A stretch of DNA of 63,701 nt, counting the filler. It is 7 parts of 7 records of this genome, joined end to end, with 100 filler letters (N's around TTAATTAATTAA, not from the genome) between each part and the next. Parts side by side here need not be neighbours in the genome. Positions count along the whole stretch, not along the records: positions 48,766 to 53,974 come from SRR31147125_26026; 6 more parts are not named here. The stretch is one strand, 5' to 3'. The position numbers were made by a program, and so were the translations under genes. Below are positions 13,036-56,282 of this stretch, in pieces (within the stretch, counting starts at the first letter, position 1; each line of letters starts with the position of its first letter). The notes below the pieces were generated by a model, which was not told the DNA's origin, ran no database searches, and worked only from the letters and a program-made list of their open reading frames with translations.

Positions 13036-13135
13036 NNNNNNNNNNNNNNNNNNNNNNNNNNNNNNNNNNNNNNNNNNNNTTAATTAATTAANNNNNNNNN
13101 NNNNNNNNNNNNNNNNNNNNNNNNNNNNNNNNNNN
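13036..13135. other. Artificial contig linker (N44-TTAATTAATTAA-N44)
   Basis: Identical 100-nt spacer with stops in all six frames; composition changes across it. Confidence 0.98.
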
Positions 13136-21816: not shown

Positions 21817-21916
21817 NNNNNNNNNNNNNNNNNNNNNNNNNNNNNNNNNNNNNNNNNNNNTTAATTAATTAANNNNNNNNNNNNNNNNNNNNNNNNNNNN
21901 NNNNNNNNNNNNNNNN
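21817..21916. other. Artificial contig linker
   Basis: N44-TTAATTAATTAA-N44. Confidence 0.98.
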
Positions 21917-34036: not shown

Positions 34037-35326
34037 ATGAGTGAACAATCTGTCGACTATCATCCAATGTGGAAAGAACTGGGTCTTGATCTTGAAAAAC
34101 ATGACGCTCTTTTAAGCGTGCTTGGTCAAGGTTATCAAGATGTGTTTTTGTCACAAAAAAATCGCCCGGAGGGAATGCAATACTTCGATTTCGTCATGAG
34201 TGAAGTTCATGGACTTCGGATAAAAGAACTTGTCGATGCAAAAAAGGAAGGCCGCATTGTTGTCGGTTCTTTCTGTGTTTTTGTCCCTGAAGAACTTATT
34301 TTGGCAATTGATGGAGTGTCGGTCGGTCTTTGCGCCGGAGCAGAATTCGGGCTTGAAGCGGCTGAAAGATTCGTACCTCGCAATACTTGCTCATTAATTA
34401 AATCTGCTTTCGGTTTCGCATTGGAAAAGGTTTGTCCGTATATTGCCGCCTCTGACATAATCGTTGGTGAAAATACCTGTGATGGCAAAAAGAAAAGCTA
34501 TGAATCTTTCGGCGATCTCGTTAACGGATTTTACGCAATGGATTTACCGCAGGTAAAAAGCGAGGAAGGAAAGAATCTTTTAAAAGCCGAATTCAAGCGT
34601 TTCATTTCTTTACTGGAAGAAAAATCAGGCAAAACGATCACAGCGGAAAATCTCAAAAAAGGAATTGATACTGTTAATAAAAAACGAAAAGCGATGCACA
34701 AGCTTTCAGATTTAAGAAAATCAAATCCTGCGGCTATTTCAGGTTTGGACGCATTGCTTATAAATCAGGTGTTTTTCTATGACAATCCGGAGCGATTCAC
34801 GGATTCGGTCGAGAAAATAAATGATGAGATCGAGGAAAGAATCAATTCAAAGACCGGAGTTTTCGCAAAAGAAACTCCAAGGCTCGTCGTTTCGGGATGT
34901 CCGATGGCTGTTCCAAACTGGAAAGTTCATAGCATTATCGAAAATGCCGGTGCGGTTGTTGTCGGAGATGAATCCTGTGTCGGTGACAGAGGAACGCAAA
35001 ACCTGACAAATCCGGAAGGTGAAACTCTCGACCAATTGATTGACAATCTTGTCGAAAGATACATGCAAATCGATTGCGCCGTTTTCACGCCCAATCCGAC
35101 AAGAATTGAACATTGCAAAGAGATTTATAATAAAACAAAAGCCGATGGTGTAATTCATTATGGATTGCAGTTTTGCTCGCCATATCAGATGGAAGCGATA
35201 CCTTTTGAAAAAGATCTTGAAAAAGCAGGAGTTCCCACTTTGAGAATCGACACCGATTATTCTCCGGAAGATGCGGAACAACTACGAACCAGAATCGAAG
35301 CTTTCATCGAAAGAATCAAAGGCTAG
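34037..35326 (+). CDS. Double-cubane cluster protein (DCCP; 2-hydroxyacyl-CoA dehydratase superfamily)
   Basis: N-terminus MWKELGLDLEKHD..NRPEGMQYFDFVMSEVHGLRIKEL; Cys motifs FCVFVPEE, LCAG, NTCSLIK, CPY, TCDGKKK, GCP, ESCVG, DCA, QFC. Confidence 0.8.
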   Translation: MSEQSVDYHPMWKELGLDLEKHDALLSVLGQGYQDVFLSQKNRPEGMQYFDFVMSEVHGLRIKELVDAKKEGRIVVGSFCVFVPEELILAIDGVSVGLCAGAEFGLEAAERFVPRNTCSLIKSAFGFALEKVCPYIAASDIIVGENTCDGKKKSYESFGDLVNGFYAMDLPQVKSEEGKNLLKAEFKRFISLLEEKSGKTITAENLKKGIDTVNKKRKAMHKLSDLRKSNPAAISGLDALLINQVFFYDNPERFTDSVEKINDEIEERINSKTGVFAKETPRLVVSGCPMAVPNWKVHSIIENAGAVVVGDESCVGDRGTQNLTNPEGETLDQLIDNLVERYMQIDCAVFTPNPTRIEHCKEIYNKTKADGVIHYGLQFCSPYQMEAIPFEKDLEKAGVPTLRIDTDYSPEDAEQLRTRIEAFIERIKG

Positions 35327-35328
35327 AC

Positions 35329-35943
35329 ATGATTAAAGCTGGAATGGACATAGGTTCACGCACAATCAAGCTTGTTATAGCGGATGCCGGTCGGATTATA
35401 CATGAAGAAATTCAAATGAATTCTCATGATCCGATCGGCATTTGCCGAAAGCTTTTGCAGAATCAAACATATGACAAATTAAGTGTCACCGGATATGGCA
35501 GGCATCTTGTTGAGCGATATTTCGATTGCGAGGTCATAACGGAAATCAAAGCTGTTTCAATCGGAGCAAAGCATCTTTTCCCTGATTGCAAAACAATACT
35601 GGATATTGGCGGACAAGACACAAAAGTAATTTCTCTGGATCAATCCGGTCGCTTAAAAAAGTTCGAGATGAACGACAAATGTGCAGCAGGTACCGGAAAA
35701 TTTCTGGAAATAATGGCAACCGCTCTCGGTTACTCAATGAGCGATTTTATCGAAAATGCCATGCAAGCTAAAAAGTCGCAAAGCATAAACTCCATGTGTA
35801 CAGTTTTTGCAGAAAGCGAAGTCATCGGCATGGTCGCTCGCGAAGCACCAAGAGACGAACTTGCTTTAGGTTTGCATCAGGCTGTTGCTAAAAAAGCTTC
35901 AGGATTATTGAAAAGAATCGAAATCCTTGACGATGTAGTTTTT
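35329..35943 (+). CDS. ATP-dependent [4Fe-4S] activator (HgdC/DCCP-R, ASKHA archerase), 3'-truncated
   Basis: GMDIGSRTIK, TGYGR, DIGGQDTK, MNDKCAAGTGKFLE, SMCTVFAESEV. Confidence 0.92.
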
Positions 35944-36043
35944 NNNNNNNNNNNNNNNNNNNNNNNNNNNNNNNNNNNNNNNNNNNNTTAATTAATTAAN
36001 NNNNNNNNNNNNNNNNNNNNNNNNNNNNNNNNNNNNNNNNNNN
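35944..36043. other. Artificial contig linker
   Basis: N44-TTAATTAATTAA-N44. Confidence 0.98.
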
Positions 36044-41946: not shown

Positions 41947-42046
41947 NNNNNNNNNNNNNNNNNNNNNNNNNNNNNNNNNNNNNNNNNNNNTTAATTAATT
42001 AANNNNNNNNNNNNNNNNNNNNNNNNNNNNNNNNNNNNNNNNNNNN
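41947..42046. other. Artificial contig linker
   Basis: N44-TTAATTAATTAA-N44. Confidence 0.98.
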
Positions 42047-42806: not shown

Positions 42807-44201
42807 ATGAAAGCTATTGACTTAAAAGATATATTTGAAAACGCAAATCAGTATTTAGATAAGGAAGTAAAGGTTCAGGGTTTTATTAGAACAAACAGAA
42901 AGGCGAATTCTCAAGTTGGGTTTATAGATTTAAATGATGGCACATGCTTTAACAACTTGCAAATTGTATATTCTGAAGATTCAGATTGCGATGATAATAT
43001 AGAAAAACTTGGTATTGCAACTGCTGTTACTGCAAAAGGCACACTTGTGTGTACCCCAAATGCAAAACAAGATTTTGAACTTCAATGTTCATTTATAAAA
43101 GTTGAGGGAAAATCTGAAAATGATTATCCATTACAAAAAAAGAGACATAGCTTTGAATACTTAAGAGAGATAGCTCACTTAAGACCAAGAAGCAACACGT
43201 TTTCGGCTGTCTTTAGAATAAGATCAGTTGCCGCAAAAGCGGTTCATGATTTTTTTTGTGAGAGAAATTTTATGTATGTTCATACTCCAATAATAACAGC
43301 GAGCGACTGTGAGGGTGCTGGGGATATGTTTAGAGTAACGACTTTGGATGCAAAGAACCCGCCATTGGATGATGATGGGAACGTTGATTACAGCAAGGAT
43401 TTTTTTGCAAGACAAACCAACTTAACAGTTAGTGGACAATTAGAAGGAGAAAGTTTTGCGCTTGCGTTTAAAAAGATATATACTTTTGGACCCACGTTTA
43501 GATCGGAAAACTCAAATACTCCAAGGCATGCAGCAGAGTTTTGGATGATTGAGCCTGAGGTTGCGTTTAATGATATAAACGATAACATGGATTTAGCAGA
43601 AGATATGATTAAATATGTAATTAAACGCGTTATGGAAAAGGCGAAAAAGGAGATTGAGTTTTTTAACAGATTTATTGATAAAGAACTTATTCAAAGGTTG
43701 AACGGTATTTTGAGTTCCGAATTTGAAAGAATAACCTATACAAAAGCAATAGAGGATTTAATGGGATCTAAGCAAAAGTTTGAATACCCTGTTAAATGGG
43801 GGATTGACCTTCAAACAGAGCACGAGAGGTTTTTAACAGAGAAACTATACGAAAAGCCAGTATTTGTTACTGATTATCCAAAAGATATCAAAGCATTTTA
43901 TATGAAACTTAACGATGATAATAAAACAGTTGCGGCTATGGATTTGCTTGTTCCGAAAGTGGGAGAGATTATTGGTGGAAGTCAAAGAGAAGATAATCTT
44001 GAAACGTTGATAAGTCGTATGCAACAAAGTGGTATCAAACCAGACGATTATAGTTGGTATACAGACCTTAGAAAATACGGAGGAGCATATCATTCTGGAT
44101 ATGGTCTTGGCTTTGAGAGGCTTATATTGTACCTAACTGGTATGGCTAATATACGAGACGTTATTCCTTTTCCAAGAACACCAAGGAGTGCAGATTTTTA
44201 A
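42807..44201 (+). CDS. asnS: Asparagine--tRNA ligase
   Basis: [57 protein letters not shown]. Confidence 0.96.
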
Positions 44202-44603
44202 AATTTTATAGCGTAAACATTAGGTAATGAGTGTGGTGGATATAGGTTTATTTGTTGTCTATAGATTAAGATTATGATATAATTCTCATGATTATAATGC
44301 TGTTGTTATGAAAATGTGCAAACATTATAGTATAACAAGGTTTATGGATTGTATTTTCTATTATAGTTGGATATATAAGTTTTTTGCAGTTGTGTAAGTT
44401 GATTATACTCCATTACTGTATTTTTATTTACCTTAAATATTATCAATTTATAATGTATTGTAACAGTTTCGATAGTAACATATGATTTTATGCTAGAAAT
44501 GCTTCTGCATTTTGAAGGATCAATTTTAAAAACGCATAAAAGTAATATATAAATGATGACATAAATGCCATGCTTGTTTTAATGGTTCTGGAGAGTTAGA
44601 ATT

Positions 44604-45524
44604 ATGGATTACAAAGTGAGCGTTGTTATTCCAACATACAAAAGAAATTCAATATATTTAAAGCGTGCGATTGATTCGGTTTTGATGCAATCATACAAAA
44701 ATATTGAAGCTATTGTAGTTGATGATAATCCGCCAGGTTCTGAACATAGAAAAATTGCAAACGATGCAATGAAAGAATATGAAAACAATGATAGAGTTGT
44801 TTATCACCAAAACAAAGAAAATGTGGGTGGTTCGTATGCAAGAAACAATGGAATAAATATTGCAAAAGGCGATTATATAACCTTTTTGGATGATGATGAT
44901 AGATATTTAGAAGATAAGGTAAAAGATCAGCTTGAGTTTATGGTGAAAAGTGGTTATGATATGACTTTTACCGACTTAAAACTTGTTAATGAAAATGAGA
45001 TTGTTGTAGATTATAGGGAGTATAGTGGACTTAAGGCATTTGATAACGATACTTTATTAAAGTATCATATAAAGAGGCACTTAACAGGTACGCCTACATT
45101 TATGTATAAAGCAGAAAAACTAAAGGAAATTGGTGGATTTGAGTTTGCAAAAGTTGGACAAGAATTCTACTTAATGCTAAAAACGATTGAAAGAGATTTA
45201 AATATTGGATACTTTCCTTCCTGTGGTGTTGTTGCATATAGACATCATGAGGGTGGGATATCTTTTGGAATGAATAAAATTGTTGGAGAAAAAACTCTAT
45301 ATGATTTTAAAAAGAAGTATTTTGATATTTTTACATCTAAAGAAAAGAGATTTATTAAATTTCGACACCGCGCTGTATTAGTTGTAAGTTTTATTAGGAT
45401 AAAAAAATACTTAAAAGCATTTATAAACTTATTACTGGCATTCTTTGCATCACCAGTTGATTTTGTAAGAGAAGGTGGAGCTTTTGTCAAAAAAGTTAGA
45501 AAGCTTAGAAGAAAATCAAAATAG
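44604..45524 (+). CDS. Glycosyltransferase family 2
   Basis: SVVIPTYKR, VVDDN, ARNNGI, FLDDDD. Confidence 0.88.
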   Translation: MDYKVSVVIPTYKRNSIYLKRAIDSVLMQSYKNIEAIVVDDNPPGSEHRKIANDAMKEYENNDRVVYHQNKENVGGSYARNNGINIAKGDYITFLDDDDRYLEDKVKDQLEFMVKSGYDMTFTDLKLVNENEIVVDYREYSGLKAFDNDTLLKYHIKRHLTGTPTFMYKAEKLKEIGGFEFAKVGQEFYLMLKTIERDLNIGYFPSCGVVAYRHHEGGISFGMNKIVGEKTLYDFKKKYFDIFTSKEKRFIKFRHRAVLVVSFIRIKKYLKAFINLLLAFFASPVDFVREGGAFVKKVRKLRRKSK

Positions 45525-45664
45525 TTTTATTTCAATATCATCTGGATGACAGGACTATCGGTATGTTTGGGGCTTTGAAATTATGATGTAGCTACTTTTT
45601 GCTTGTCTTATGTGCTAAAAGTAATGATAAATAAACTACCATTATAGATTAATATATAAGAGAC

Positions 45665-45705
45665 AAAAAAACTACTGCGTGGTTAGCACAGCAGTTTTTA
45701 TTTTT
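45665..45705. terminator. Probable bidirectional terminator
   Basis: A tract, ACTGCGTG..CACAGCAGT stem, T tract, between convergent genes. Confidence 0.5.
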
Positions 45706-45723
45706 ATAGTGTTTAGTGTTCGA

Positions 45724-46071
45724 TCAATCTAAAGTAATCAAAGCTATAATTCTTAAATCTTCGCTTCCGTCGTTTATCAAGGCATGTGGAGCATCTCCAT
45801 CTGTTTTAGCTACATCACCAGCATAAAGCTTTACATACTCGCCGCCATCCAAAACACTGCATTCGCCATTAAGAACAAAGTATACTTCGCATTCGCCTTG
45901 GTGTGAATGTTCGCCAACGCTGTCTCCTGGAGCCAAAGTAAGCTCTGAACAGAGTCTTATGTTGTTTGGTAAGTAATCATCTGCAACAATCATATTGAGT
46001 TTTGTAGGGCCTTTTCCACCTCTAAGAGCATCCTTTTCAACGTATTTTCTATCACTTTTTTTAATAATCAT
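45724..46071 (-). CDS. Cupin domain protein (TM1287-like)
   Basis: LRGGKG, PGDSVGEHSHQGECEVYFVLNG, PHALIN. Confidence 0.85.
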   Translation of the reverse strand: MIIKKSDRKYVEKDALRGGKGPTKLNMIVADDYLPNNIRLCSELTLAPGDSVGEHSHQGECEVYFVLNGECSVLDGGEYVKLYAGDVAKTDGDAPHALINDGSEDLRIIALITLD

Positions 46072-46088
46072 ATTATTTTACCTTTCTA

Positions 46089-46465
46089 TTATTCATCCTT
46101 ATAGTACATAGAATCCTGTATTTGGTGCTTTTGCTGATCCTCGCCACTTTTTTCATTTCCATCATCATTTGTAGAATTTCCGAAGAAATAATTAAAAATA
46201 GGGATAGTCAAAAAAACAATCCATGCAACATTCCACGCGCTATATACAAAACCTAATGTTAAAAATACAATGACGCATAAAATTGGAACGACATGTATGA
46301 ATTTTTTTCTTTAGAGACGATAAAATAGTAAACGGGTATTGTAAGAAAAACAATCCATGCAATCTTCCATAAATCCCATAAGTACCCCATAAGGAAAAAA
46401 GCTATTACGCATAAAATTGGGTAAGGAAACTTTGCGGGGTCACGCTTATTGTTGTTTTCATCCAT
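46089..46465 (-). CDS. Small membrane protein with an internal duplication, frameshift near 46305
   Basis: Two copies of PILCVI.F..G....W..AWIVFLTIP lie in adjacent frames, separated by an A-run. Confidence 0.6.
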
Positions 46466-46539
46466 AATCTTTCGCCGCCTTTCAAAATATATGACTATTT
46501 AAAAAAAGGACAGTTTAACACTGCCCTATTCTTTATAAA

Positions 46540-48477
46540 TTAGTTGTTCTTTTTTGTGTGGTTTAAAAGTCCACCGTCAACGATTACTTTTCTAAGCCTT
46601 TCGGATGTTTCTAAAACTACTTTGAATTCAAAGCCCTTAGTTTTGTTCAGCATAGTAAAGTCCGCTTTGCCTAAAACTTTGTCAACACTATCGGTTATAA
46701 CAAGTTCATCGCCAAGGTCTATTTTATCGTATATGCTTTCATCTTCAAATACCAATGGTAGTATACCAGAGTTTATTAAGTTTGCCATATGAATTCTAGC
46801 AAATGACTTAGCAATAACACCTTTTATTCCAAGATAAAGAGGAACTAGCGCAGCATGTTCTCTTGAAGATCCTTGACCATAGTTATGACCAGCAACTAAG
46901 AATCCGCCGCCTTTTTGTTTTGCTCTTGCAGGAAAAGCTTCGTCTACTGGAGCTAAGCAATAGTCAGAAAGATGAGGAATATTTGATCTATATGGCAATA
47001 ATTTTGCGTTAGATGGCATGATATGATCTGTTGTGATGTTGTCCTCCATTATTAATAAGACTTCACCTTTAGTCTCTTGTGTTAGTTCATCGTTTAGCGG
47101 GAATGGTTTAATGTTTGGACCTCTTACTACTTCAACATCATTTGCACTATCAGCAGGAGCTACAATTAGATTATCGTTTATCATAAACTCTTTTGGTTGC
47201 TCAATGTTAATAAGTTCATCTAAATCGATTCCAGCATCAGTTGGATCTGTTAGATACCCGTTTACAGCAGAAATAGCCGCTACTTCTGGGCTAACTAGAT
47301 ACACGTCAGCAGATTGTGTTCCGCTTCTTCCAAAGAAGTTTCTGTTAAAAGTTCTTAGTGAAACAGCATCGCTTTTTGGTGATTGTCCCATACCTATACA
47401 TGGGCCACATGCACATTCCATAAACCTTGCGCCAGCAGCAATCATATCAGCAAGTGCACCGTTTTTTGCAAGCATATTGAAAACTTGTTTTGATCCAGGC
47501 GATATAACTAAGCTTGTATTTTCTGATATGGTTTTGCCTTTTAGGATCTTTGCTGTTTTCATCATGTCTAAATAGGATGAGTTTGTGCAAGATCCAATAC
47601 ATACTTGATCGACAGCGATTTTACCAATTTCCTCAACAGATTTAACTGCATCTGGGCTGTGTGGACAAGCTGCAAGTGGTTTTATGCTAGAAAGATCAAC
47701 AGTGATCTTTTCATCATATTCCGCATCAGCATCAGGTAAAAGCTCAATGTAATCTTCTTCTCTGTCTTGTGCCTTTAAAAATTCTCTAACCGTGTCATCA
47801 GATGGGAAAACAGATGTAGTTGCTCCAAGCTCTGCGCCCATGTTTGTTATGGTTGCTCTTTCAGGAACACTTAGAGTCTCAACTCCAGGACCTGTATATT
47901 CAACGATTTTAGAAACGCCGCCTTTAACAGATAAAACCCTTAAAACTTCTAAGATGATATCCTTTGCTGCAACACCTTTGTTTAGTTTTCCTGTGAGTTC
48001 TACGTTTAAAATTTTTGGCATTGGTATATAATACGCACCGCCAGCCATAGCAACAGCAACGTCTAATCCCCCAGCACCAATAGCCAACATACCAATTCCG
48101 CCGCCAGTAGGTGTGTGACTATCTGAACCAAGAAGTGTAGCGCCTGGTTTAGAAAATCTCTCTAGATTAACTTGGTGACAAATACCGTTACCTGGTTTAG
48201 AAAAATATACTCCGTGTTTTTTTGCTACAGTTCCAATATATTTATGATCGTCCGCATTTTCAAAGCCAGACTGAATGGTGTTATGGTCGATATATGCAAC
48301 GCTCTTTTTTGTTTTAACTCTGTCTACTCCCATAGCCTCAAACTGAAGATATGCCATTGTACCTGTAGAATCTTGTGTAAGTGTATAATCGATTTTAATA
48401 CCAATCTCTTGTCCTGCAATCATCTCACCGCTAAGTAGGTGATCTTTAATAATTTTTTTCGATAGTGAATAACCCAT
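46540..48477 (-). CDS. Aconitate hydratase (short clostridial type)
   Basis: QDSTGTMA, GNGICHQ, GSDSHT, IGSCTN, CACGPCIG, TFNRNF, NITTDHI, NYGQGSSREHA. Confidence 0.92.
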   Translation of the reverse strand: MGYSLSKKIIKDHLLSGEMIAGQEIGIKIDYTLTQDSTGTMAYLQFEAMGVDRVKTKKSVAYIDHNTIQSGFENADDHKYIGTVAKKHGVYFSKPGNGICHQVNLERFSKPGATLLGSDSHTPTGGGIGMLAIGAGGLDVAVAMAGGAYYIPMPKILNVELTGKLNKGVAAKDIILEVLRVLSVKGGVSKIVEYTGPGVETLSVPERATITNMGAELGATTSVFPSDDTVREFLKAQDREEDYIELLPDADAEYDEKITVDLSSIKPLAACPHSPDAVKSVEEIGKIAVDQVCIGSCTNSSYLDMMKTAKILKGKTISENTSLVISPGSKQVFNMLAKNGALADMIAAGARFMECACGPCIGMGQSPKSDAVSLRTFNRNFFGRSGTQSADVYLVSPEVAAISAVNGYLTDPTDAGIDLDELINIEQPKEFMINDNLIVAPADSANDVEVVRGPNIKPFPLNDELTQETKGEVLLIMEDNITTDHIMPSNAKLLPYRSNIPHLSDYCLAPVDEAFPARAKQKGGGFLVAGHNYGQGSSREHAALVPLYLGIKGVIAKSFARIHMANLINSGILPLVFEDESIYDKIDLGDELVITDSVDKVLGKADFTMLNKTKGFEFKVVLETSERLRKVIVDGGLLNHTKKNN

Positions 48478-48665
48478 TTACGCTCCTTTATAGTTAATAA
48501 TATTCAAAACTTTTACTATCTCCATTTTATTAAAAAACAGCCAAAAATTCAACCTTATTGTGTTTTTTTATGCAAGTTGTAGTATAAATATGAAAAAAGC
48601 CGCATAGCGCGACTTTTCAGACCATCGATAAAGGACACAAACGCAAAACTTTCAACAATTTAAGA

Positions 48666-48765
48666 NNNNNNNNNNNNNNNNNNNNNNNNNNNNNNNNNNN
48701 NNNNNNNNNTTAATTAATTAANNNNNNNNNNNNNNNNNNNNNNNNNNNNNNNNNNNNNNNNNNNN
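48666..48765. other. Artificial contig linker
   Basis: N44-TTAATTAATTAA-N44. Confidence 0.98.
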
Positions 48766-48799
48766 CCTGGTTAACGGGGCTGTGCCCTGGACCCCGATA

Positions 48800-48867
48800 C
48801 GGACGGCCAATGGCCGTCCCTACGGCGCTATATGTAGGTTATACGTAGGGACGACCATTGGTCGTCC
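48800..48867. repeat. Inverted pair of GTAG-family REP elements (family A)
   Basis: CGGACGGCCAATGGCCGTCCCTAC (48800-48823, reverse) and GTAGGGACGACCATTGGTCGTCC (48845-48867); each is a GTAG head plus hairpin, with compensatory changes between copies. Confidence 0.75.
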
Positions 48868-48921
48868 TCCGTATGCCTCTGTCCTTAATATCATTCATAC
48901 CTATTATTCAAGGAGAAAGTC

Positions 48922-49833
48922 ATGGAAAACATCGAGGGGATCGTATTCAATATCCAGCGATACAGTATTGACGACGGTCCCGGCGTTCGGACGACCGTCT
49001 TTTTAAAAGGATGCCCGCTCACGTGTCTGTGGTGCTCCAATCCGGAGTCCCAGTGCATGAAGCCGGAGGTGACATGGCGGTATACGTCCTGTAAAAGCTG
49101 CGGGACGTGCGTTAAGGTCTGTCCCGTCGGCGCTGTCACCATGGGTGAAGACGGTGTTCATATTGATCGGGATAAATGCACGCTCTGTGAAGAATGCATT
49201 AAAAACTGCGTACCTCAGGCACTTCAGCTGTCCGGTAAGAAAATGTCGGTTGAAGAGGTGTTCAAAATCGTCAAAAAGGACGCCGACTATTATGAGGCCT
49301 CCGGTGGCGGCGTCACGGCCTCCGGCGGCGAGATTCTTGCGCAGGCCGACTTTGTCGCGGCGCTCTTTAAGCTCTCGCACGAAGCGGGCTTTCATACCAA
49401 TGCAGACACGTCCGGCTACGGCGACCCGGCTGCGCTGGAAAAGATCCTGGAATACAGCGATCTTGTGTTCTTTGATCTCAAGCATATAGACCCGGCTAAG
49501 CATCAGGAATATACCGGTGTGTCCAACGAACTGATTTTAAAAAATCTCGGGCTCGTCGTCAAAAAAGGCGTGCCTGTCGTGATACGCGTGCCGCTCATTC
49601 CGGGGTATAACGACTCGGACGACAATCTCAACGCGCTGGGACGGACCGTGAAGGAGCTTGCGCCGGATGCGCCGGTGAATCTCCTGCCGTATCACCGATA
49701 CGGCGCGAATAAATACAGGATGATCGACATGGTTTATCAGCTGGGAGATGTGCCCGAGCTGACACCCGAGCAGCTGGACCACGCTAAAGAGATTATCGAG
49801 TCCTACGGGCTGAAATGCGAGATATCAAAATAA
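48922..49833 (+). CDS. Glycyl-radical enzyme activating protein (radical SAM with a 2x[4Fe-4S] ferredoxin insert)
   Basis: DGPGVRTTVFLKGCPLTCLWCSNPE; CKSCGTCVKVCP and CTLCEECIKNC; GGGVTASGGE; LLPYH. Confidence 0.93.
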   Translation: MENIEGIVFNIQRYSIDDGPGVRTTVFLKGCPLTCLWCSNPESQCMKPEVTWRYTSCKSCGTCVKVCPVGAVTMGEDGVHIDRDKCTLCEECIKNCVPQALQLSGKKMSVEEVFKIVKKDADYYEASGGGVTASGGEILAQADFVAALFKLSHEAGFHTNADTSGYGDPAALEKILEYSDLVFFDLKHIDPAKHQEYTGVSNELILKNLGLVVKKGVPVVIRVPLIPGYNDSDDNLNALGRTVKELAPDAPVNLLPYHRYGANKYRMIDMVYQLGDVPELTPEQLDHAKEIIESYGLKCEISK

Positions 49834-49914
49834 CTGAAAGTAACACATGGTTCCCTCGCCAACCGCGGGGGATGCCTGATACAAAAATATCAAAATACTT
49901 GAGGGGGAAAAAAC

Positions 49915-51828
49915 GTGATCAAAGTCAAGCAGGAAAAAATAGACGAGCAGACCTTTGCCAAGATGCGTCAGGAACAGCTGGCGCAGTGGCCCACCGGCAA
50001 GGAAGTCGATATCGACGAGGCCGTCGAATATCATAAATCGCTGCCCGACAGCAAGAACTTCACGAAGCGTCTGGCGCAGTATAAGGCAGAGGGCAAAATT
50101 GGCCTGTTCCCGCGCTCTGGCGTCCCCGTCGTCGAAGAAGAGATCAAGCTGCTGCAGGGTCTCAACGCCGTCGGTGTGCAGCTTTTCCCGTTTACGACCG
50201 ACTCATATACGAGAAACCTCCAGTTGGACAAGGCCCAGAAGGGCTTGGAGGAAAGTATCCGCACCGGGAAGAAGAAGCTCAACGGCTACCCCATCATCAA
50301 CCACGGTGTAAAAACGACCCGGAAGGTCGTCGAGTCATGCGAGGGCGCGTTTGACCCCCGCTCGTCCCGTGTTGCCAACAGCTTCGTCGGTGAGATCGCT
50401 TTTGCCTCCGGCATGACGGCCATGCCCAACAGCTTTTTCGGCTGGATTGGCGGCTACGACAAGAAAGCAACGCCCGAGGAGTGCATCCAGACGGCCCAGT
50501 ATCTTGGCCGCCTGATCGGCCTATACGCCGACCGGGGCGTTATTATCTCCACAGACACCCACGGGTGGCTGCCTAACGGCGTTATCCCCATGTATGTCAA
50601 TATCGCCACGCAGATTATTGAGGCGCTCATCTCAGCCGGACAGGGGACAAAGAGCATCGTCCCGCTGATGAACTTCCAGGGCAACATCGCCCAGGATGTG
50701 GCCGAGATTAAAATCTGCGAAAAGCTTTTCAGAAAATACCTGGATAAAGCCGGCTTTACCGATACGATTATCCCCGGCATCATCGGCAACCAGTCGTCGT
50801 TGTTCCCGTTCCCGCAGGATCTGGGTAACGCTTTCGGCTACATAAACTACGTCGCGATGGAAGCGGCCATGACGGATCTGGCCGCCTGCTCCGTCAAGAC
50901 AATCGACGAGGCGATTGGCGTGCCGAGCCTTGAGTCCCACATGCAGACATACGCTTCGGCCAACTGGATTTTCAACGTTGTCCGCCAGCAGAAGTTTGAG
51001 GCCGATACGCCGGCGATCCAGCAGGAAATGCGCATGACGGAGCTGGCCGTCTCCGCGATCCTCGACAAGGTCCTGGAAATGGGCGACGGCGATGTGGCTG
51101 TCGGCGCTGTCAAGGCCGTTGAGGCGGGCGTTTTGGATTCGCCGTTCTCCATCAACATCTATCCGAAGGATCTCGTTATGGGCGCCAGAGACCTTGAGGG
51201 CGCGTGCCGCTATATCGACTACGGCAACCTGCCGATTCCCGAAGAAGTTCGGAAATATAACGACGAGAAGATTAAGGAAAGAGAAAAGTACGAGGGCACG
51301 AAGCTCAACTTCAAGGCCTCCATGGCTGACTTCTGGTGTCTGGCGCAGGGTAAAGCCATTGGTGCGTTCGATAAGAGCGACGTCGAGCTGGAAAAGATCG
51401 AGATGAAAGAGGTTCCGACCATCGTAACGGGCACCGTCGGCGTCGACGCGCACGTCATTGGCACGAAGATCATTTCAAGAGCGCTGACAGAGCAGGGGTT
51501 CAACGTTGTCCCGCTCGGCGCGCAGACGCCGGCCGAGGAGTTTATTAAAGCCGCGCAGGAAACGGATGCCGACGCCATCCTCATTACGTCCCTTTACGGC
51601 ATGGCTGAGATGGATGTGCAGGGTATCCGCGAGATGTGCGTCGAGGCCGGTATCGGCGATATCCTCATGTACATCGGCGGCATTCTGGGCGTCGGCTCCA
51701 GAGACTTCGCGGAGGACGAGGCCACCTTTAAAAAGATCGGCTTTGACAGGGTCTATCCGCCTGAGTCCGATGTCAATCAGTCCATTAAAGACCTTACGGA
51801 GGACCTCAAGGCCAGAAATAAAATTTAA
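49915..51828 (+). CDS. AdoCbl-dependent mutase: divergent glutamate/methylaspartate mutase E subunit fused to an S-type B12-binding domain
   Basis: QWPTGKEVD, DSYTR, LNGYP, PQD..AFG, VKT.DEAIG, GAVKAVEAGVLDSPF, RYIDYGNLP; the C-terminal domain (from about residue 497) has DAHVIG (DxHxxG), SLYG, YIGG, GFDRVYPP. Confidence 0.9.
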   Translation: MIKVKQEKIDEQTFAKMRQEQLAQWPTGKEVDIDEAVEYHKSLPDSKNFTKRLAQYKAEGKIGLFPRSGVPVVEEEIKLLQGLNAVGVQLFPFTTDSYTRNLQLDKAQKGLEESIRTGKKKLNGYPIINHGVKTTRKVVESCEGAFDPRSSRVANSFVGEIAFASGMTAMPNSFFGWIGGYDKKATPEECIQTAQYLGRLIGLYADRGVIISTDTHGWLPNGVIPMYVNIATQIIEALISAGQGTKSIVPLMNFQGNIAQDVAEIKICEKLFRKYLDKAGFTDTIIPGIIGNQSSLFPFPQDLGNAFGYINYVAMEAAMTDLAACSVKTIDEAIGVPSLESHMQTYASANWIFNVVRQQKFEADTPAIQQEMRMTELAVSAILDKVLEMGDGDVAVGAVKAVEAGVLDSPFSINIYPKDLVMGARDLEGACRYIDYGNLPIPEEVRKYNDEKIKEREKYEGTKLNFKASMADFWCLAQGKAIGAFDKSDVELEKIEMKEVPTIVTGTVGVDAHVIGTKIISRALTEQGFNVVPLGAQTPAEEFIKAAQETDADAILITSLYGMAEMDVQGIREMCVEAGIGDILMYIGGILGVGSRDFAEDEATFKKIGFDRVYPPESDVNQSIKDLTEDLKARNKI

Positions 51829-51864
51829 CGGCGAGCCTTACGCGCCGGCTTATCGCATAAAGGC

Positions 51865-51888
51865 AGGGCCGCATGAAAATGCGGCCCT
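51865..51888 (+). terminator. GC-rich hairpin downstream of the mutase
   Basis: AGGGCCGCAT-GAAA-ATGCGGCCCT perfect 10-bp stem; no U tract. Confidence 0.4.
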
Positions 51889-51916
51889 CAAATCGTCGTA
51901 AACCTGCATACAAGCT

Positions 51917-51944
51917 GCAGGGGTGGCGGATTCCATATCCGCCC
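51917..51944 (+). repeat. REP element (family B), degenerate head
   Basis: GCAGGGGTGGCGGATTCCATATCCGCCC, matching the copies at 52353-52462. Confidence 0.65.
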
Positions 51945-52032
51945 ATTCCTGCGGGACCCACAATAATGCGCCTAACGACGCTTTTATGGAACATAATGGT
52001 TTCCCGTCAGTCATAACTCACGGGGTGATAAC

Positions 52033-52326
52033 ATGAAAATACTTTTATGCGCCGTTATTTTACTTACATTATTTCTGACACCGGCGGACAGTACATTAAA
52101 AACATCCGATGAGGTACAAACGCAAGAAATGTGCGTTGTGATACCAGAAGAATTGGACGACGGCTTAGCGGCATCTATGGAAGAGCTGTATAAGCAGCGC
52201 GGGCTTTGCGACCCCAAGATGCATTTGCAGCCGGGAGACAACTGTGACCCGGATATGCTGATAGAGGTCACACCCGATAACGATCCCGGCTTTATGATGG
52301 AACAATTGCCTGAGATTGATCCCTGA
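52033..52326 (+). CDS. Small secreted acidic hypothetical protein with DP repeats
   Basis: GGGGTG Shine-Dalgarno, signal peptide MKILLCAVILLTLFLTPA, repeated (C)DPxM units. Confidence 0.55.
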   Translation: MKILLCAVILLTLFLTPADSTLKTSDEVQTQEMCVVIPEELDDGLAASMEELYKQRGLCDPKMHLQPGDNCDPDMLIEVTPDNDPGFMMEQLPEIDP

Positions 52327-52352
52327 CCGTTTGTCATGCAACATTAAACACA

Positions 52353-52462
52353 GTAGGGGCGGATTCCGTATCTGCCCGCCGCGACATGGGCGGATATGGA
52401 ATCTGCTCCGACGTTGTGATACTATTAGCGATATAAGAAGGGCGGATATGGAATCCGCCTCT
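52353..52462. repeat. Cluster of three GTAG-family REP elements (family B)
   Basis: GTAGGGGCGGATTCCGTATCTGCCC (52353-52377); reverse copies GGGCGGATATGGAATCTGCTCCGAC (52388-52412) and GGGCGGATATGGAATCCGCCTCT (52440-52462). Confidence 0.75.
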
Positions 52463-52528
52463 GGGGATAACAGATACAATTTTATTGGGCGGGACGAGGC
52501 AGCCCGCCATTATACTGGGGGCAGATAC

Positions 52529-53914
52529 ATGAGCAGCATTCGCATATTCATCGATTTCGGCAGCACGTTTACGAAAGCGGTCGCCTTTGATCTTGAAAAG
52601 GAGGAGCTGGCCGCGCGGGTACAGGTGCCGTCCACTGTTGATACGGATATCTCCGTCGGCTTGCGTGAGGCGTTTGAAAAGCTCGGCGAGACGGTGACGA
52701 TTGAGGAAACGGACGTTAAGCGCACCGTGGCTTGCTCCAGCGCCGCAGGCGGCTTGAAGATGATCTGCATCGGGCTCGTTCAGGAGTATACCACAGAGGC
52801 CGGGCGGCTGGCCGCGTTGGGTGCGGGCGCAAAGATCGTCGGCACGTACTCCTATGAGATGACTAGGGACGAGGCTGAGGAAATCAAGACAAGCGCCCCC
52901 GATATCGTGCTTTTAACCGGCGGCACGGACGGCGGCAATAAAAAAACCATTGTCCATAACGCCCGTATGCTGGCGGGGCTGGAGAGCGGCGTCAAGAATA
53001 TCATCGTAGCCGGCAACAAATCAGCCAAGGGCGAAATCGAGGAGATTTTTGCGGGCGCGCATAAAAACGTCATCTACACGAAAAATGTGATGCCGGAGTT
53101 TGGCCGGCTCAATTTGGACCCCGTCAACGAAAAAATCCGAGAACTGTTTATCAGCCGTATTACGGATGCCAAGGGCATCAGCCAGGTCAAGGAGATGATC
53201 GGCGATGTCGTCATGCCCACGCCGTCGGCTGTACTGGAGGCGGCCCGGCTGATCGCTGACGGCGCGCGGGGCGAGGAAGGCCTAGGAGAGCTGCTTCTCG
53301 TCGACGTAGGCGGCGCGACCACCGACGTGTATTCCATTGCCAAGGGCGCGCCGACAAAAGAGGGCGCGTCACTGGCCGGTTTGCCGGAGCCGTACGCCAA
53401 GCGGACAGTGGAGGGCGATCTGGGCCTGTTTCACAATCTTGATACGCTTTCGTGCATTGCCGAGGATGCCGACGGGCTTTTTGATGACGAGCGCACCGCG
53501 TTTGAAGAGCGCGTTAAAAAGCTGCGCGCCGTCCTCAGTATACCGGACGGGGCTGACCAGACGGAGTGCCAGCTGACGCTATCGCATCTGGCCGTCAAGA
53601 CAGCGGTGGACCGGCATGTGGGCACCATTGAGCTCGTCGTGACGCATAACGGAGACTTCTGGGTGCAGCGCGGCAAGGATTTAACACAGATAAAAACCGT
53701 CATCGGGGCCGGCGGGCCCGTTGCGTTCTCGTCCGACCCGCGCCGTGTGCTGGACGGGGCCGTTTTCAAGCCGGCGTCGGCCAATATCCTCAAGCCCCTA
53801 TCGCCGCGCTTTTATCTCGACGAAAAGTATATCCTGTACGCCATCGGCCTTTTAGCGCAGACAGATCCCGTCAAGGCGCTGCGGATTATCAAAAAATACC
53901 TGAAGCAAATATAA
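52529..53914 (+). CDS. glmL: GlmL/MutL-type mutase reactivating ATPase (ASKHA)
   Basis: IDFGSTFTK, ACSSAAGGL, LLTGGTDGG, MPTPSAV, VDVGGATTDVYS, KRTVEGDLG, RHVG, GKDLT; start reassigned to ATG 52529. Confidence 0.9.
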   Translation: MSSIRIFIDFGSTFTKAVAFDLEKEELAARVQVPSTVDTDISVGLREAFEKLGETVTIEETDVKRTVACSSAAGGLKMICIGLVQEYTTEAGRLAALGAGAKIVGTYSYEMTRDEAEEIKTSAPDIVLLTGGTDGGNKKTIVHNARMLAGLESGVKNIIVAGNKSAKGEIEEIFAGAHKNVIYTKNVMPEFGRLNLDPVNEKIRELFISRITDAKGISQVKEMIGDVVMPTPSAVLEAARLIADGARGEEGLGELLLVDVGGATTDVYSIAKGAPTKEGASLAGLPEPYAKRTVEGDLGLFHNLDTLSCIAEDADGLFDDERTAFEERVKKLRAVLSIPDGADQTECQLTLSHLAVKTAVDRHVGTIELVVTHNGDFWVQRGKDLTQIKTVIGAGGPVAFSSDPRRVLDGAVFKPASANILKPLSPRFYLDEKYILYAIGLLAQTDPVKALRIIKKYLKQI

Positions 53915-53935
53915 TTAAAGGCCGTAAAACATAAC

Positions 53936-53974
53936 ACCCTCACGAACCAGCTAAACTGTTTGTGAGGGTGCTTT
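53936..53974 (+). terminator. Intrinsic terminator after glmL
   Basis: CACCCTCAC..GTGAGGGTG followed by CTTT at the contig end. Confidence 0.65.
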
Positions 53975-54074
53975 NNNNNNNNNNNNNNNNNNNNNNNNNN
54001 NNNNNNNNNNNNNNNNNNTTAATTAATTAANNNNNNNNNNNNNNNNNNNNNNNNNNNNNNNNNNNNNNNNNNNN
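53975..54074. other. Artificial contig linker
   Basis: N44-TTAATTAATTAA-N44. Confidence 0.98.
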
Positions 54075-54101
54075 GTGTCTTAACCGCTTGACCAAGGGGC
54101 C
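54075..54101 (-). tRNA. tRNA 5' fragment, probably tRNA-Glu (anticodon not in the window)
   Basis: Minus strand GGCCCCTTGGTCAAGCGGTTAAGACAC matches the acceptor 5' strand and D-arm of Firmicute tRNA-Glu; upstream TTGACA/TATTAT promoter at 54166-54137. Confidence 0.8.
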
Positions 54102-54254
54102 ATAATTTAATAGCTCGTTCTTAACACGCGAATTTCATAATACACTTTTTTGATTATATTTGTCAATACCTAATTTCACATTTAATATTTTTGTTGAATA
54201 AAAGATCAAAACATGATATATTTTTGTACATAAATATTCCATGCAGGAGGAATT

Positions 54255-54596
54255 ATGGACTGTATTTTTTGTAAAATAATAGATGGACAAATTCCATCAA
54301 AAAAAGTATTCGAAAACGACACCGTGTACGCTTTTCATGATATAAACCCACAAGCACCCATTCATGTTTTAATAATACCAAAACAGCATATCGAGTGCGT
54401 TTCAAAGCTTAAAGATGAACAATCTAATCTTATAGGTGATATGACAATCGTTGCAAGAGATATAGCAAAGGATCTAGGCATATCAGAAAACGGTTATAGG
54501 CTTGTTTTCAATATCGGAAAAGACGGCGGACAAGAGGTTTCACATATACATATGCATCTTCTAGGAGGAAGACAACTAACTTGGCCACCGGGTTAA
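54255..54596 (+). CDS. hinT: Histidine triad nucleotide-binding protein
   Basis: DCIFCKI, FHDINPQAPIHVLIIPK, GGQEVSHIHMHLLGG. Confidence 0.93.
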   Translation: MDCIFCKIIDGQIPSKKVFENDTVYAFHDINPQAPIHVLIIPKQHIECVSKLKDEQSNLIGDMTIVARDIAKDLGISENGYRLVFNIGKDGGQEVSHIHMHLLGGRQLTWPPG

Positions 54597-54627
54597 TCAA
54601 AATTAGTAAGCAATATCAAAATAGTTA

Positions 54628-54657
54628 TTGACATGTATTGCTTTAGCATAATATAAT
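54628..54657 (+). promoter_or_regulatory. SigmaA promoter of rpsU
   Basis: TTGACA, 18-bp spacer, TATAAT. Confidence 0.7.
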
Positions 54658-54719
54658 ATCTTAGGTTTATATCAAAAAACCTGTTTTCCACATCTTTCAT
54701 ATGGAGGGAGGGATAAGAG

Positions 54720-54893
54720 ATGTCAGAAATTAGAGTAGGCGAAAACGAGACTTTAGAGAGCGCTTTAAAAAGATTCAAACGTAAATGTGCAAGAGCTGGT
54801 GTTCTAGCAGAGGTTAGAAAACGTGAGCATTATGAAAAGCCAAGTGTAAAAAGAAAGAAAAAGGCTGAAGCTGCAAGAAAAAGAAAAAGATAG
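54720..54893 (+). CDS. rpsU: 30S ribosomal protein S21 (absent from the supplied ORF track)
   Basis: Translated by hand: [63 protein letters not shown] Shine-Dalgarno. Confidence 0.97.
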
Positions 54894-55006
54894 TCAAAAA
54901 ATTTATTTTACTTTTGGGAGCGAGAAACAGATTTTCTTCCATAATTACTAGGCCTAAAGGCCTTTTACAAAATGATATGATGTGGATAAGTTAGATATAA
55001 AAATAT

Positions 55007-55035
55007 ACGAGGCAAAATTAATTTGCCTCGTTTTG
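55007..55035. terminator. Terminator between convergent rpsU and dapB
   Basis: ACGAGGCAAA..TTTGCCTCGT followed by a T tract. Confidence 0.7.
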
Positions 55036-55061
55036 TTTTATCTATATTTTTTATATAATCT

Positions 55062-56282
55062 TTAAATATTAAAAGTCTTAGATACTATATCCATAGCACT
55101 TCTAGATTTATCACTATGCACACAAAAAGCAATCTTTGTTTCAGATGTAGAAATAGCTTTAATATCAATATCATCACTAGCAAGGGCCGTAAACAACTTA
55201 GCAGCAACCCCAGTTTGTCTCTCCATCCCCATACCTTCAACAGTAATCTTGGTTATATCATCAATATTCAACACGCTCGCGCCTTCAAAGCTATGTATAA
55301 AATCCTTAATAGCAGCATTTGCAATATTAATCTCATCATGCGACAAAGAAAAAGAAATAGTCGCTTTATTATCTAAATTGATATTTTGAGTAATAATATC
55401 AATATTAACCCCACTCGCACCAAGCTTAGAAAAAAGAGTAGCAATATTCTTCGGCTCAGCCGGCAAATCAATAACAGTAACCATAGACTGATTTGTATCA
55501 AAATACATGTTCGTAATAACATGATGCTGGCTTAAAATATCCTTCATCTCATAAAGCTTAGGTAATTTACCACATATAAATTTAGCAGCCCTAACCGCAC
55601 CAACAGCAAACACTTGTCTTGATAAAGCTTTATGCGTAACCTCAATAATCTCATCATTCCCAAGGAATAAAACTTCATGTTCACCAACAACAGTACCACC
55701 ACGAACAGCATGAATACCAATATCAACCTTTTCACGCTTATCAGCTCTAGTATCTCTACCACATACATAATTCATATCATCAGCAAATGCTTCGTTCAAA
55801 CAATCAGCCAAAGCAAGCGCAGTACCACTAGGAGCATCAACTTTTCTATTATGATGTTTTTCTACTATTTCTATATTATAATCATACCCCAAAAATCCAG
55901 CAACCTGCTTAATAAGATCCATTTGGATATTAACACCCAAAGACATATTGGCAGACTTAAAAAGAGTACACTCTTTTGAAGCTTCAACAATTCTCTCATC
56001 TTGCTCTTTTGTATATCCAGTAGTACAAAGAACAGCCGCAATCGAATTTTTCTTACAATATTCCAAAATATCATCTAAAGCCTCTGGTCTCGAAAAATCA
56101 ATCAAAACATCAGCCTTTTCAACTATATCCTCATATTTCTCATAAACAGGAAAATCATTACTAAATCTATCAGTGCATTTATCAACCCCGCAAACAACAT
56201 GGGCTTCATCATCACCTTTAACTATAGATGCAACAACTTGTCCCATAAAACCATTAGCACCACTAATTATAACTTTTACCAT
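55062..56282 (-). CDS. dapB: 4-hydroxy-tetrahydrodipicolinate reductase fused to two C-terminal aspartokinase-type ACT domains
   Basis: GANGFMG, IDFSRP, CTTG, SANMSLG, EKHHNRKVDAPSGTA, VRGGTVVGEH; then GVNIDIITQN, KITVEGMGM..TGVAAKLF.AL, ISTSETKI. Confidence 0.92.
   Translation of the reverse strand: MVKVIISGANGFMGQVVASIVKGDDEAHVVCGVDKCTDRFSNDFPVYEKYEDIVEKADVLIDFSRPEALDDILEYCKKNSIAAVLCTTGYTKEQDERIVEASKECTLFKSANMSLGVNIQMDLIKQVAGFLGYDYNIEIVEKHHNRKVDAPSGTALALADCLNEAFADDMNYVCGRDTRADKREKVDIGIHAVRGGTVVGEHEVLFLGNDEIIEVTHKALSRQVFAVGAVRAAKFICGKLPKLYEMKDILSQHHVITNMYFDTNQSMVTVIDLPAEPKNIATLFSKLGASGVNIDIITQNINLDNKATISFSLSHDEINIANAAIKDFIHSFEGASVLNIDDITKITVEGMGMERQTGVAAKLFTALASDDIDIKAISTSETKIAFCVHSDKSRSAMDIVSKTFNI

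Follow-up and report, generated by a model that had tools for sequence, protein, structure and literature searches.

A single-chain B12-dependent mutase of the GlmE/GlmS type that probably acts on a dicarboxylate other than glutamate and is linked to a glycyl-radical enzyme

The stretch of DNA that we analyzed (the window; 63,701 nucleotides) carries, at positions 49915 to 51828 of its plus strand, an intact reading frame for a 637-amino-acid protein that resembles the adenosylcobalamin (AdoCbl)-dependent glutamate mutase GlmE/GlmS. As judged from sequence, it is likely that this protein is a working single-chain mutase of the GlmE/GlmS type that is serviced by the accessory protein GlmL, that rearranges a dicarboxylate other than glutamate, and that is coupled to a glycyl-radical enzyme. 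Taking the parts of this proposal one by one, it is very probable that the substrate is not glutamate and nearly as probable that it is a dicarboxylate; functional coupling of the mutase to the partner glycyl-radical enzyme also seems probable, if a little less so. Any single named substrate is unlikely to be the right one.

A fusion of GlmE-like and GlmS-like domains

The reading frame begins with a GTG codon, eight bases past a Shine-Dalgarno sequence (GAGGGGG), and homologs share the start residue. The original prediction for this gene covered positions 49915 to 51402, which translate as an open frame but make up only the first 496 of the 637 codons. This is the E part alone: the extension of the frame to 51828, the fusion of E to S, and the downstream gene for GlmL were all missed.

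The first domain (residues 1–485; 49915–51369, plus strand) is a catalytic TIM barrel like that of GlmE, as indicated by Pfam, by phmmer against the PDB, by an AlphaFold2 model, and by Foldseek. Residues 43–483 match Met_asp_mut_E (PF06368; E = 2.8e-135), and residues 4–483 align to GlmE from Clostridium cochlearium (6H9E_B, E = 2e-93; 1CB7_B, E = 4e-92) with two gaps, one of a single residue and one of two residues. The near-gapless alignment of about 485 amino acids that had been made by eye was therefore accurate. The mutase is 35–38% identical to GlmE over the full length. The second domain (residues 499–637 and the stop codon; 51409–51828, plus strand) resembles the B12-binding protein GlmS according to NCBIfam, PDB entry 1I9C_A (E = 1.6e-36), and Foldseek. 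Residues 502–591 match the B12-binding domain PF02310 (E = 2.4e-13), and the DxHxxG motif reads DAHVIG (residues 511–516; 51445–51462). The S domain is above the cutoffs of both NCBIfam models for "methylaspartate mutase subunit S" (NF002612, 186 bits against a cutoff of 110; TIGR01501, 154.9 bits against 135.8), and the E part is under the cutoff of the GlmE equivalog model (TIGR01503, 366.8 bits against 390.1).

An AlphaFold2 model of the whole protein, built from a 40-sequence alignment (pLDDT 91.0, pTM 0.92), was superposed by Foldseek on GlmE (6H9E_B; TM score 0.96, rmsd 1.7 Å) and on GlmS (1I9C_A; TM score 0.94, rmsd 1.1 Å). Going by its domains, the reading frame is a natural fusion of a GlmE-like domain and then a GlmS-like domain. 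The GlmL/MutL-type accessory protein that is encoded downstream (52529–53914, plus strand) has 461 amino acids if it starts at the ATG at 52529, a start that we placed by alignment to residues 1–461 of GlmL from the most closely related locus (L001). It matches the GlmL model NF040745 (accessory_GlmL; 552.2 bits against a cutoff of 475) and Pfam's MutL (E = 1e-154).

The substrate pocket

According to passages of an account of glutamate mutase (PMC10947579), the carboxylates are bound by an "arginine claw" (R66, R100, and R149), E171 makes a hydrogen bond to the amine on the glycyl fragment that migrates, the acrylate fragment is held by Y177 and R100, and N123 is part of the adenosine cavity. 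The alignment to GlmE has the claw intact in the window's mutase (R67, which corresponds to R66 of GlmE, along with R100 and R149), as the original prediction had stated, and the other residues that it had listed as kept are also present: Y181, N123, and K328/E332 (K326/E330 in GlmE). Four pocket residues are replaced (H150 by Ser, E171 by Pro, Y177 by Trp, and F216 by His). Beside position 171, we also see G172N and G173S, and the surroundings include W218, F174, and F175; M294L and an insertion of two residues after residue 292 are further differences from GlmE. The four replacements had been predicted correctly, but a fifth, of His291 by Asn, depends on the register of the alignment: with HMMER and MAFFT alike, His291 of GlmE faces Gly and Gln292 faces the Asn. 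The His is lost in either register.

The codon for Pro171, at the position where Glu171 of GlmE contacts the substrate's amine, was placed by alignment at 50425–50427 (plus strand). There is no acidic residue between E160 and D182 of the mutase, so a small shift in the alignment could not restore an Asp or a Glu at position 171, and none is available nearby to take its place.

Conservation, selection, and descent

A word-indexed search found at least 1222 proteins that are similar to the mutase (E ≤ 1e-10); the best 120 of these are 67–98% identical and all contain both Pfam domains. In our set of 122 homologous sequences (P0002–P0123, at least 67% identity, with the window's own mutase included), R67, R100, R149, S151, M170, P171, S173, F175, W177, Y181, H216, G217, W218, K328, E332, and H513 are invariant. 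A clade marked by Pro171 and Trp177, which the original prediction had suggested looking for, does exist. Ser150, which was to be its third mark, is less consistent (Ser in 105 of the 122 sequences and Cys in 17).

We also fetched 58 related loci from genome records and scored the signature in 57 of them. P171 and W177 are present in all 57, and H216 and W218 are present in all 55 loci that reach those columns. These loci are from Sporobacter, Papillibacter, and other Oscillospiraceae (many of them termite-gut or rumen bins), from Desulfobacterales, and from bins labeled as Bacillota, Spirochaetes, Acidobacteria, Bacteroides, and Actinomycetota. The signature (P171/W177/H216/W218) is kept whether the mutase is fused or split, with separate E and S genes in Actinomycetota and in one Gracilibacteraceae bin.

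FastTree placed the clade, in a phylogeny of 120 E domains, on a single branch (10 of 10 tips, support 100) that is separate from the GlmE proteins with the canonical signature. When the clade is compared to 26 canonical-signature representatives, 43 positions are shared and 17 are fixed differently (76, 156–158, 171–173, 177, 194, 198, 216, 226, 251, 296, 342, 378, and 419). The differences concentrate at 156–158, 171–173, 177, 216, and 296, and the shared positions include the claw and the adenosine contacts. Because the claw and adenosine contacts are shared while 171–177 and 216 are fixed differently, the amine side of the pocket appears to have been rebuilt while the machinery remained constrained. 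This fixed, clade-wide pattern supports the original prediction's idea that remodeling affected the amino-group side and spared the radical machinery and the clamp for dicarboxylates.

The mutase is under strong purifying selection. Relative to L001, with 98.6% protein identity and 91% nucleotide identity, dN/dS is 0.018; relative to the more distant L004, L005, and L007, it is 0.054–0.057. That a catalytic residue of the reference enzyme has been lost might suggest that the protein is a decaying or non-catalytic relic. However, the 637-codon frame is intact, the residues that handle the cofactor and the radical are all invariant, the structural model is confident, and the family has at least 1222 members. 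Nor are the substitutions sporadic or unshared, as they would be in decay: they are fixed in the clade, and dN/dS is low throughout (0.018–0.057). The conservation across 122 sequences and the dN/dS values effectively refute this reading.

Linkage to a glycyl-radical enzyme

The gene upstream of the mutase (48922–49833, plus strand) encodes a 303-amino-acid radical SAM protein that is an activating enzyme for a glycyl-radical enzyme. It matches TIGR02494 (348.2 bits against a cutoff of 174.35) and Pfam's Radical_SAM and Fer4, and none of NCBIfam's substrate-specific activase models reached its own cutoff for this protein. The activase is 94% identical in amino acids to the activase behind a glycyl-radical enzyme in L001, where an 849-amino-acid glycyl-radical enzyme (L001:6250–8799) is encoded directly upstream of the activase. 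We presume that the window's partner gene is off the contig because the contig ends 156 bp upstream of the activase and because relatives have the enzyme there; this gene most probably lies just beyond the contig's left end. Further upstream, L001 encodes two iron-type alcohol dehydrogenases, a PucR-type regulator, a nitroreductase-family protein, and a family-III CoA-transferase.

To count the neighbors of the mutase in the 58 related loci, we clustered crude calls of open reading frames (ORFs), in which antisense shadow ORFs displaced some genes, so all of these counts are floors. One family of glycyl-radical enzymes is present in 26 of the 48 loci with at least 4 kb of upstream sequence (27 of 58 overall), the activase in 26 of 58, and GlmL in 35 of 58. 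Other recurrent neighbors are short-chain dehydrogenases/reductases (SDR; 21 loci), iron-type alcohol dehydrogenases (16 loci), enoate reductases of the old yellow enzyme (OYE) type (10 loci), aldehyde:ferredoxin oxidoreductase (AOR; 8 loci), PrpD-family proteins (8 loci), and an unannotated 283-amino-acid protein (8 loci). The last of these is encoded downstream of GlmL (L005:17154–18005 and seven other loci), and in many cases an SDR and an OYE-type reductase come next. Pfam, NCBIfam, and the PDB gave no match to this protein, and the protein atlas gives a weak lead towards cupins.

The partner glycyl-radical enzyme scores under every NCBIfam equivalog cutoff, and its best solved relative is HpzG (8IOF, 376 bits). 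In 23 of the 24 full-length copies, the sequence of its Cys loop is SGCLGYH; the remaining copy, with GCVE, is a second and distant enzyme in L011. According to sections 5.6 and 5.7 of a review of glycyl-radical enzymes (PMC13450708), in this superfamily, a CXE motif whose Glu hydrogen-bonds to the substrate is kept by both the 1,2-eliminases and the isomerases. SGCLGYH lacks this glutamate. In an alignment of the partner enzyme to glycerol dehydratase, there is an Arg opposite His281.

Tests of known pathways

As a stand-in for the window's own genome, we examined the closest whole genome (G001, a Sporobacter). It contains two genes from the GlmE family, both of them non-canonical. No methylaspartate ammonia-lyase (methylaspartase) was found over the cutoff in G001 (the best score was 20.9 bits against 27). 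As a positive control, the genome G608 has a canonical glmE (775 bits) that is adjoined by methylaspartase (407.8 bits), and tblastn with the G608 methylaspartase found no match in the window or in the 58 related loci. The original prediction had already remarked that no methylaspartase is present on the contig. That remark carries no weight because the window is a series of joined contigs, and the actual contig that contains the mutase is just 5.2 kb.

These results bear on whether the mutase might still be a glutamate mutase, with a different mode of binding for the amino group, as the name "methylaspartate mutase" in the databases would imply. Besides this labeling of its relatives (as subunit S/E), the 35–38% identity to GlmE along the full length fits such a role, as do the scores of the S domain and GlmL over NCBIfam's glutamate-mutase equivalog cutoffs. 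But the E domain is under the GlmE cutoff, every member has Pro in place of Glu171, and Y177 and F216 are replaced as well. Madhavapeddi and Marsh reportedly described E171 as a base in 2001, and mutation of Glu171 is said to strongly impair glutamate mutase. Also, methylaspartase was not found in G001, the related loci, or the window, although the control genome has one beside glmE. It is very improbable that the mutase acts on glutamate.

A second possibility is that the mutase is an ortholog of 2-methyleneglutarate mutase (Mgm, EC 5.4.99.4), which converts 2-methyleneglutarate to 3-methylitaconate. Mgm from Eubacterium barkeri is a single chain of about 614 amino acids with a C-terminal B12-binding domain, and this is the layout of the window's mutase; as an ortholog of Mgm, the mutase would have a known activity and not a new one. 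A dicarboxylate that has no amino group would suit the kept claw and the lost Glu171, and genes of the enoate-reductase type are present in 10 loci. On the other side, PrpF (PF04303, the family of 3-methylitaconate isomerase) has no match in G001, and neither the window nor any of the 58 loci gave a tblastn match to any of four PrpF proteins. No nicotinate-fermentation family was seen among the annotated neighbors in the related loci. Furthermore, the mutase is constantly paired with a glycyl-radical enzyme, and the nicotinate pathway is not known to include one. The genomic context thus argues against orthology to Mgm, and we consider it improbable.

We also looked for PrpF in 400 genomes of Clostridia. 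It was over the cutoff in four of them, none of which has a GlmE-like gene or a convincing B12-domain gene nearby. The one weak match to a B12 domain near PrpF has no BLASTP similarity to the mutase, and by eye its matched stretches seem to resemble the CBS region of IMP-dehydrogenase-type proteins. Passages of PMC2667541, PMC7617358, and PMC8473912 name Mgm but contain no statement that relates it to GlmE.

Several points weigh against a mutase that is specific for another dicarboxylate and is coupled to a glycyl-radical enzyme. First, the E domain falls short of the GlmE equivalog cutoff by just 23 bits, and the apparent rebuilding of the pocket depends on an alignment to residues whose roles were described for glutamate mutase. 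Second, the mutase may yet prove to be an ortholog of Mgm, a known enzyme that has its domains in the same order and acts on a dicarboxylate without an amino group. Third, we deduced that the window's organism has the partner and lacks methylaspartase from a relative whose protein is 98.6% identical. Fourth, the counts of neighbors are minimum values that were obtained with crude ORF calling; as counted, no partner glycyl-radical enzyme adjoins the mutase in 22 of the 48 loci that have 4 kb or more of upstream sequence. Finally, one of the 10 genomes with unlinked loci, the Actinomycetota bin G308, does not contain an ortholog of the partner.

The loci without an adjacent partner and the bin G308 would also be expected if the mutase were independent of the glycyl-radical enzyme, with the two genes being neighbors only by way of a mobile or co-regulated island. 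In Actinomycetota, the neighbors of the mutase are genes for AOR, SDR, PrpD-family, and hydantoinase-type proteins instead. And in the 4.6-Mb genome G001, the presence of 17 genes for PFL-like glycyl-radical enzymes makes proximity less surprising. In contrast, where there is an adjacent enzyme, it always belongs to one orthologous group, whose unusual Cys loop was described above. In nine of the 10 genomes with unlinked loci, an ortholog of the partner is encoded elsewhere (63–81% identical; paralogs are at most 36% identical). In 300 other genomes that were sampled evenly from the same order, we found neither the mutase (E ≤ 1e-100) nor, with at most three candidates scored per genome, which is a further limit on our proposal, the partner ortholog (E ≤ 1e-200). 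In L042 and L044, the mutase genes are even flanked by the activase on one side and the glycyl-radical enzyme on the other. The genomic and phyletic tie of the mutase to this one odd glycyl-radical enzyme is strong, and independence of the two seems rather unlikely.

The Actinomycetota loci had also raised the idea of a tricarboxylate substrate, from their PrpD-family and flavoprotein neighbors. We set this idea aside. When a shift of the GlmE type is drawn out for tricarballylate or isocitrate, it gives back the starting compound. The best match of the flavoprotein is to vinylphenol reductase (359 bits against a cutoff of 600), and its score for TcuA is 176 bits.

Proposed reaction and pathway

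A dicarboxylate other than glutamate is the best reading because the claw is kept, the rebuilding is fixed, the gene is under selection, the E domain scores below the cutoff for GlmE, and G001 has no methylaspartase. In this respect, the original prediction gave the reading that best fits the pocket, the selection, and the scores, but the substrates that it offered (hydroxy-, methylene-, or alkyl-substituted glutarate or succinate) remain guesses.

Given the conserved residues, B12 would be bound in the base-off/His-on form by the C-terminal domain, via H513, and the 5'-deoxyadenosyl radical would be held in an adenosine cavity that includes N123, K328, and E332. The two carboxylates of the substrate would be clamped by R67, R100, and R149, along with Y181. 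The group on the migrating carbon may be uncharged or bulkier than an amine, or it may be held by aromatic or His side chains (W177, W218, F174, F175, and H216). As in glutamate mutase, the reaction would be a 1,2 carbon shift, here one that interconverts a 2-substituted glutarate and a derivative of 3-methyl-succinate. Membership of the mutase and the SGCLGYH glycyl-radical enzyme in one pathway is indicated by the relatives and would extend to the window's organism. Iron-type alcohol dehydrogenase, AOR, and SDR travel with the pair and presumably make or consume an intermediate of this pathway.

The candidate pairs may include 2-hydroxyglutarate/3-methylmalate, 2-methyleneglutarate/3-methylitaconate, and glutarate/methylsuccinate, as well as glutarates with a 2-alkyl or 2-aryl group and N-methylated glutamates, which cation-pi contacts would hold. 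These are not separable with our data. A more specific scenario, which is speculative and on balance doubtful, is that the P171/W177/H216/W218 mutase and the CXE-less glycyl-radical enzyme form an obligate pathway of two radical enzymes: the glycyl-radical enzyme would make or cleave a methyl-branched substituted succinate (for example, by radical addition to fumarate or mesaconate), and the mutase would interconvert this compound with a linear 2-substituted glutarate.

Relation to known systems

The nearest known system is glutamate mutase from C. cochlearium and C. tetanomorphum (GlmE/GlmS with GlmL; EC 5.4.99.1; PDB 1CB7, 1CCW, 1I9C, and 6H9E). The window's system is like it in having a TIM-barrel E domain, a Rossmann B12 domain with a His-on DxHxxG motif, the claw, Y181, the adenosine contacts, and a downstream GlmL. 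It differs in that a single polypeptide contains E and then S, in the changes E171P, H150S/C, G172N, G173S, Y177W, F216H, and M294L, and in that a glycyl-radical enzyme and its activase take the place of methylaspartase, which was not found. Compared to Mgm, the likeness is in the single chain and the C-terminal B12 domain, and Mgm likewise performs a 1,2 carbon shift, on a non-amino dicarboxylate. Unlike the Mgm pathway, there are no PrpF-family or nicotinate-pathway genes nearby or in G001, and the partner is a glycyl-radical enzyme.

To our knowledge, just two reactions of B12-dependent carbon-skeleton mutases on free acids have been described, with glutamate and with 2-methyleneglutarate as the substrates. 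This clade is a candidate for a third specificity. It is large, it is spread over several phyla, it uniformly carries the probably mistaken label "methylaspartate mutase," and its pocket is predicted to be unable to hold the amine of glutamate. The near-obligate pairing with a CXE-less glycyl-radical enzyme points to an undescribed anaerobic pathway that would use two different radical cofactors. If the scenario of an obligate pathway of two radical enzymes is true, then the pathway would be a free-acid counterpart of the rearrangement of alkylsuccinyl-CoA in anaerobic hydrocarbon degradation, and the reaction would be the first new one for the GlmE family since 2-methyleneglutarate mutase. 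The question should interest those who study B12 and radical enzymology, and Sporobacter termitidis DSM 10068 (locus L008), a carrier that is in culture, makes it directly testable.

In the literature, we found no report of a GlmE-family enzyme with another substrate or of a pairing with a glycyl-radical enzyme, within a search that largely excluded subscription journals. In a 2026 review of glycyl-radical enzymes (PMC13450708), the term "glutamate mutase" occurs once, in the title of a thesis in the references, and none of the passages on B12 that a term search returned mentions the pairing.

The GlmE family at large

An exhaustive search of cluster representatives (clustered at 50% identity) returned 814 clusters at E ≤ 0.001. 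We took the best 150 of the 814 (P0123–P0272), dropped 39 shorter sequences, and kept 111 that are full-length. Among these 111, Glu171 is present in 31, all three arginines of the claw in 54, the claw without Glu171 in 25, K328 in 101, and E332 in 104. Relatives of the mutase are called "methylaspartate mutase subunit S/E" by their sources, and the source names of 10 cluster representatives, like the protein atlas, gave only "methylaspartate mutase" labels. As Glu171 is present in just 31 of the 111 representatives (from the best 150 of 814), most of the "glutamate mutase" labels are doubtful and are probably wrong; by this residue, canonical glutamate mutases are a minority among the proteins that are so annotated.

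Natural single chains also occur among glutamate mutases: P0212, P0221, and P0225 (635–665 amino acids) are S-E fusions. Unlike the clade of the window's mutase, they have the B12 domain at the N terminus, they keep R149-H150, E171, Y177, and F216, and they fall outside the clade in the FastTree phylogeny. The representatives include further fused forms of both orders, E-S and S-E; for example, P0159 from Tepidanaerobacter has 636 amino acids, with K149 and N171.

The second GlmE-like gene of G001 (L060:1324–2817) encodes 497 amino acids and lies behind a 169-amino-acid ORF. Its product has Gln at the position of R66 and lacks Glu171, so its pocket departs from the canonical one along other lines.

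Other features of the contig and the window

The window is a pseudo-molecule in which at least seven contigs are joined by six linkers of the form N44-TTAATTAATTAA-N44, which we read directly from the sequence (13036–13135, 21817–21916, 35944–36043, 41947–42046, 48666–48765, and 53975–54074). As the linkers join separate contigs, the adjacency of genes across them is meaningless. In particular, the junction at 48666–48765 separates the mutase from aconitase and other genes on its left, which are not true neighbors, and we ruled out aconitase, cupin, HIT, and dapB as pathway neighbors since they are on other pieces beyond the linkers. The true contig of the mutase, bounded by linkers, is 5,209 bp (48766–53974). 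Homology of the window to L001, its closest relative, is limited to 48907–53913, in three pieces with 88.7–90.2% nucleotide identity.

The contig contains four ORFs: the activase, the mutase, a small ORF, and GlmL. The small ORF (52033–52326, plus strand), which is between the mutase and GlmL, encodes 97 amino acids with an N terminus like that of a signal peptide, and it is enclosed by a perfect pair of 20-nt inverted repeats (51925–51944 and 52440–52459). A copy is present in L001 only (81% amino-acid identity); elsewhere among the relatives, 3–311 bp separate the mutase from a downstream GlmL. The small ORF is probably not part of the enzyme system and seems to be a short insertion that is specific to this lineage.

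At the left end of the contig is a REP-like palindrome (48801–48867), an inverted repeat with 24-nt arms that are 92% complementary, which is probably the cause of the break in the assembly. A search of positions 44000–56000 with Rfam (E ≤ 0.1) found no cobalamin riboswitch; its sole matches were to the microRNA models mir-889 and MIR4380 on this palindrome, which are below threshold and which we dismissed as spurious. On a separate piece of the window (34037–35991), there are genes for a D component of the 2-hydroxyglutaryl-CoA dehydratase type and for an activator ATPase of the BcrAD/BadFG type.

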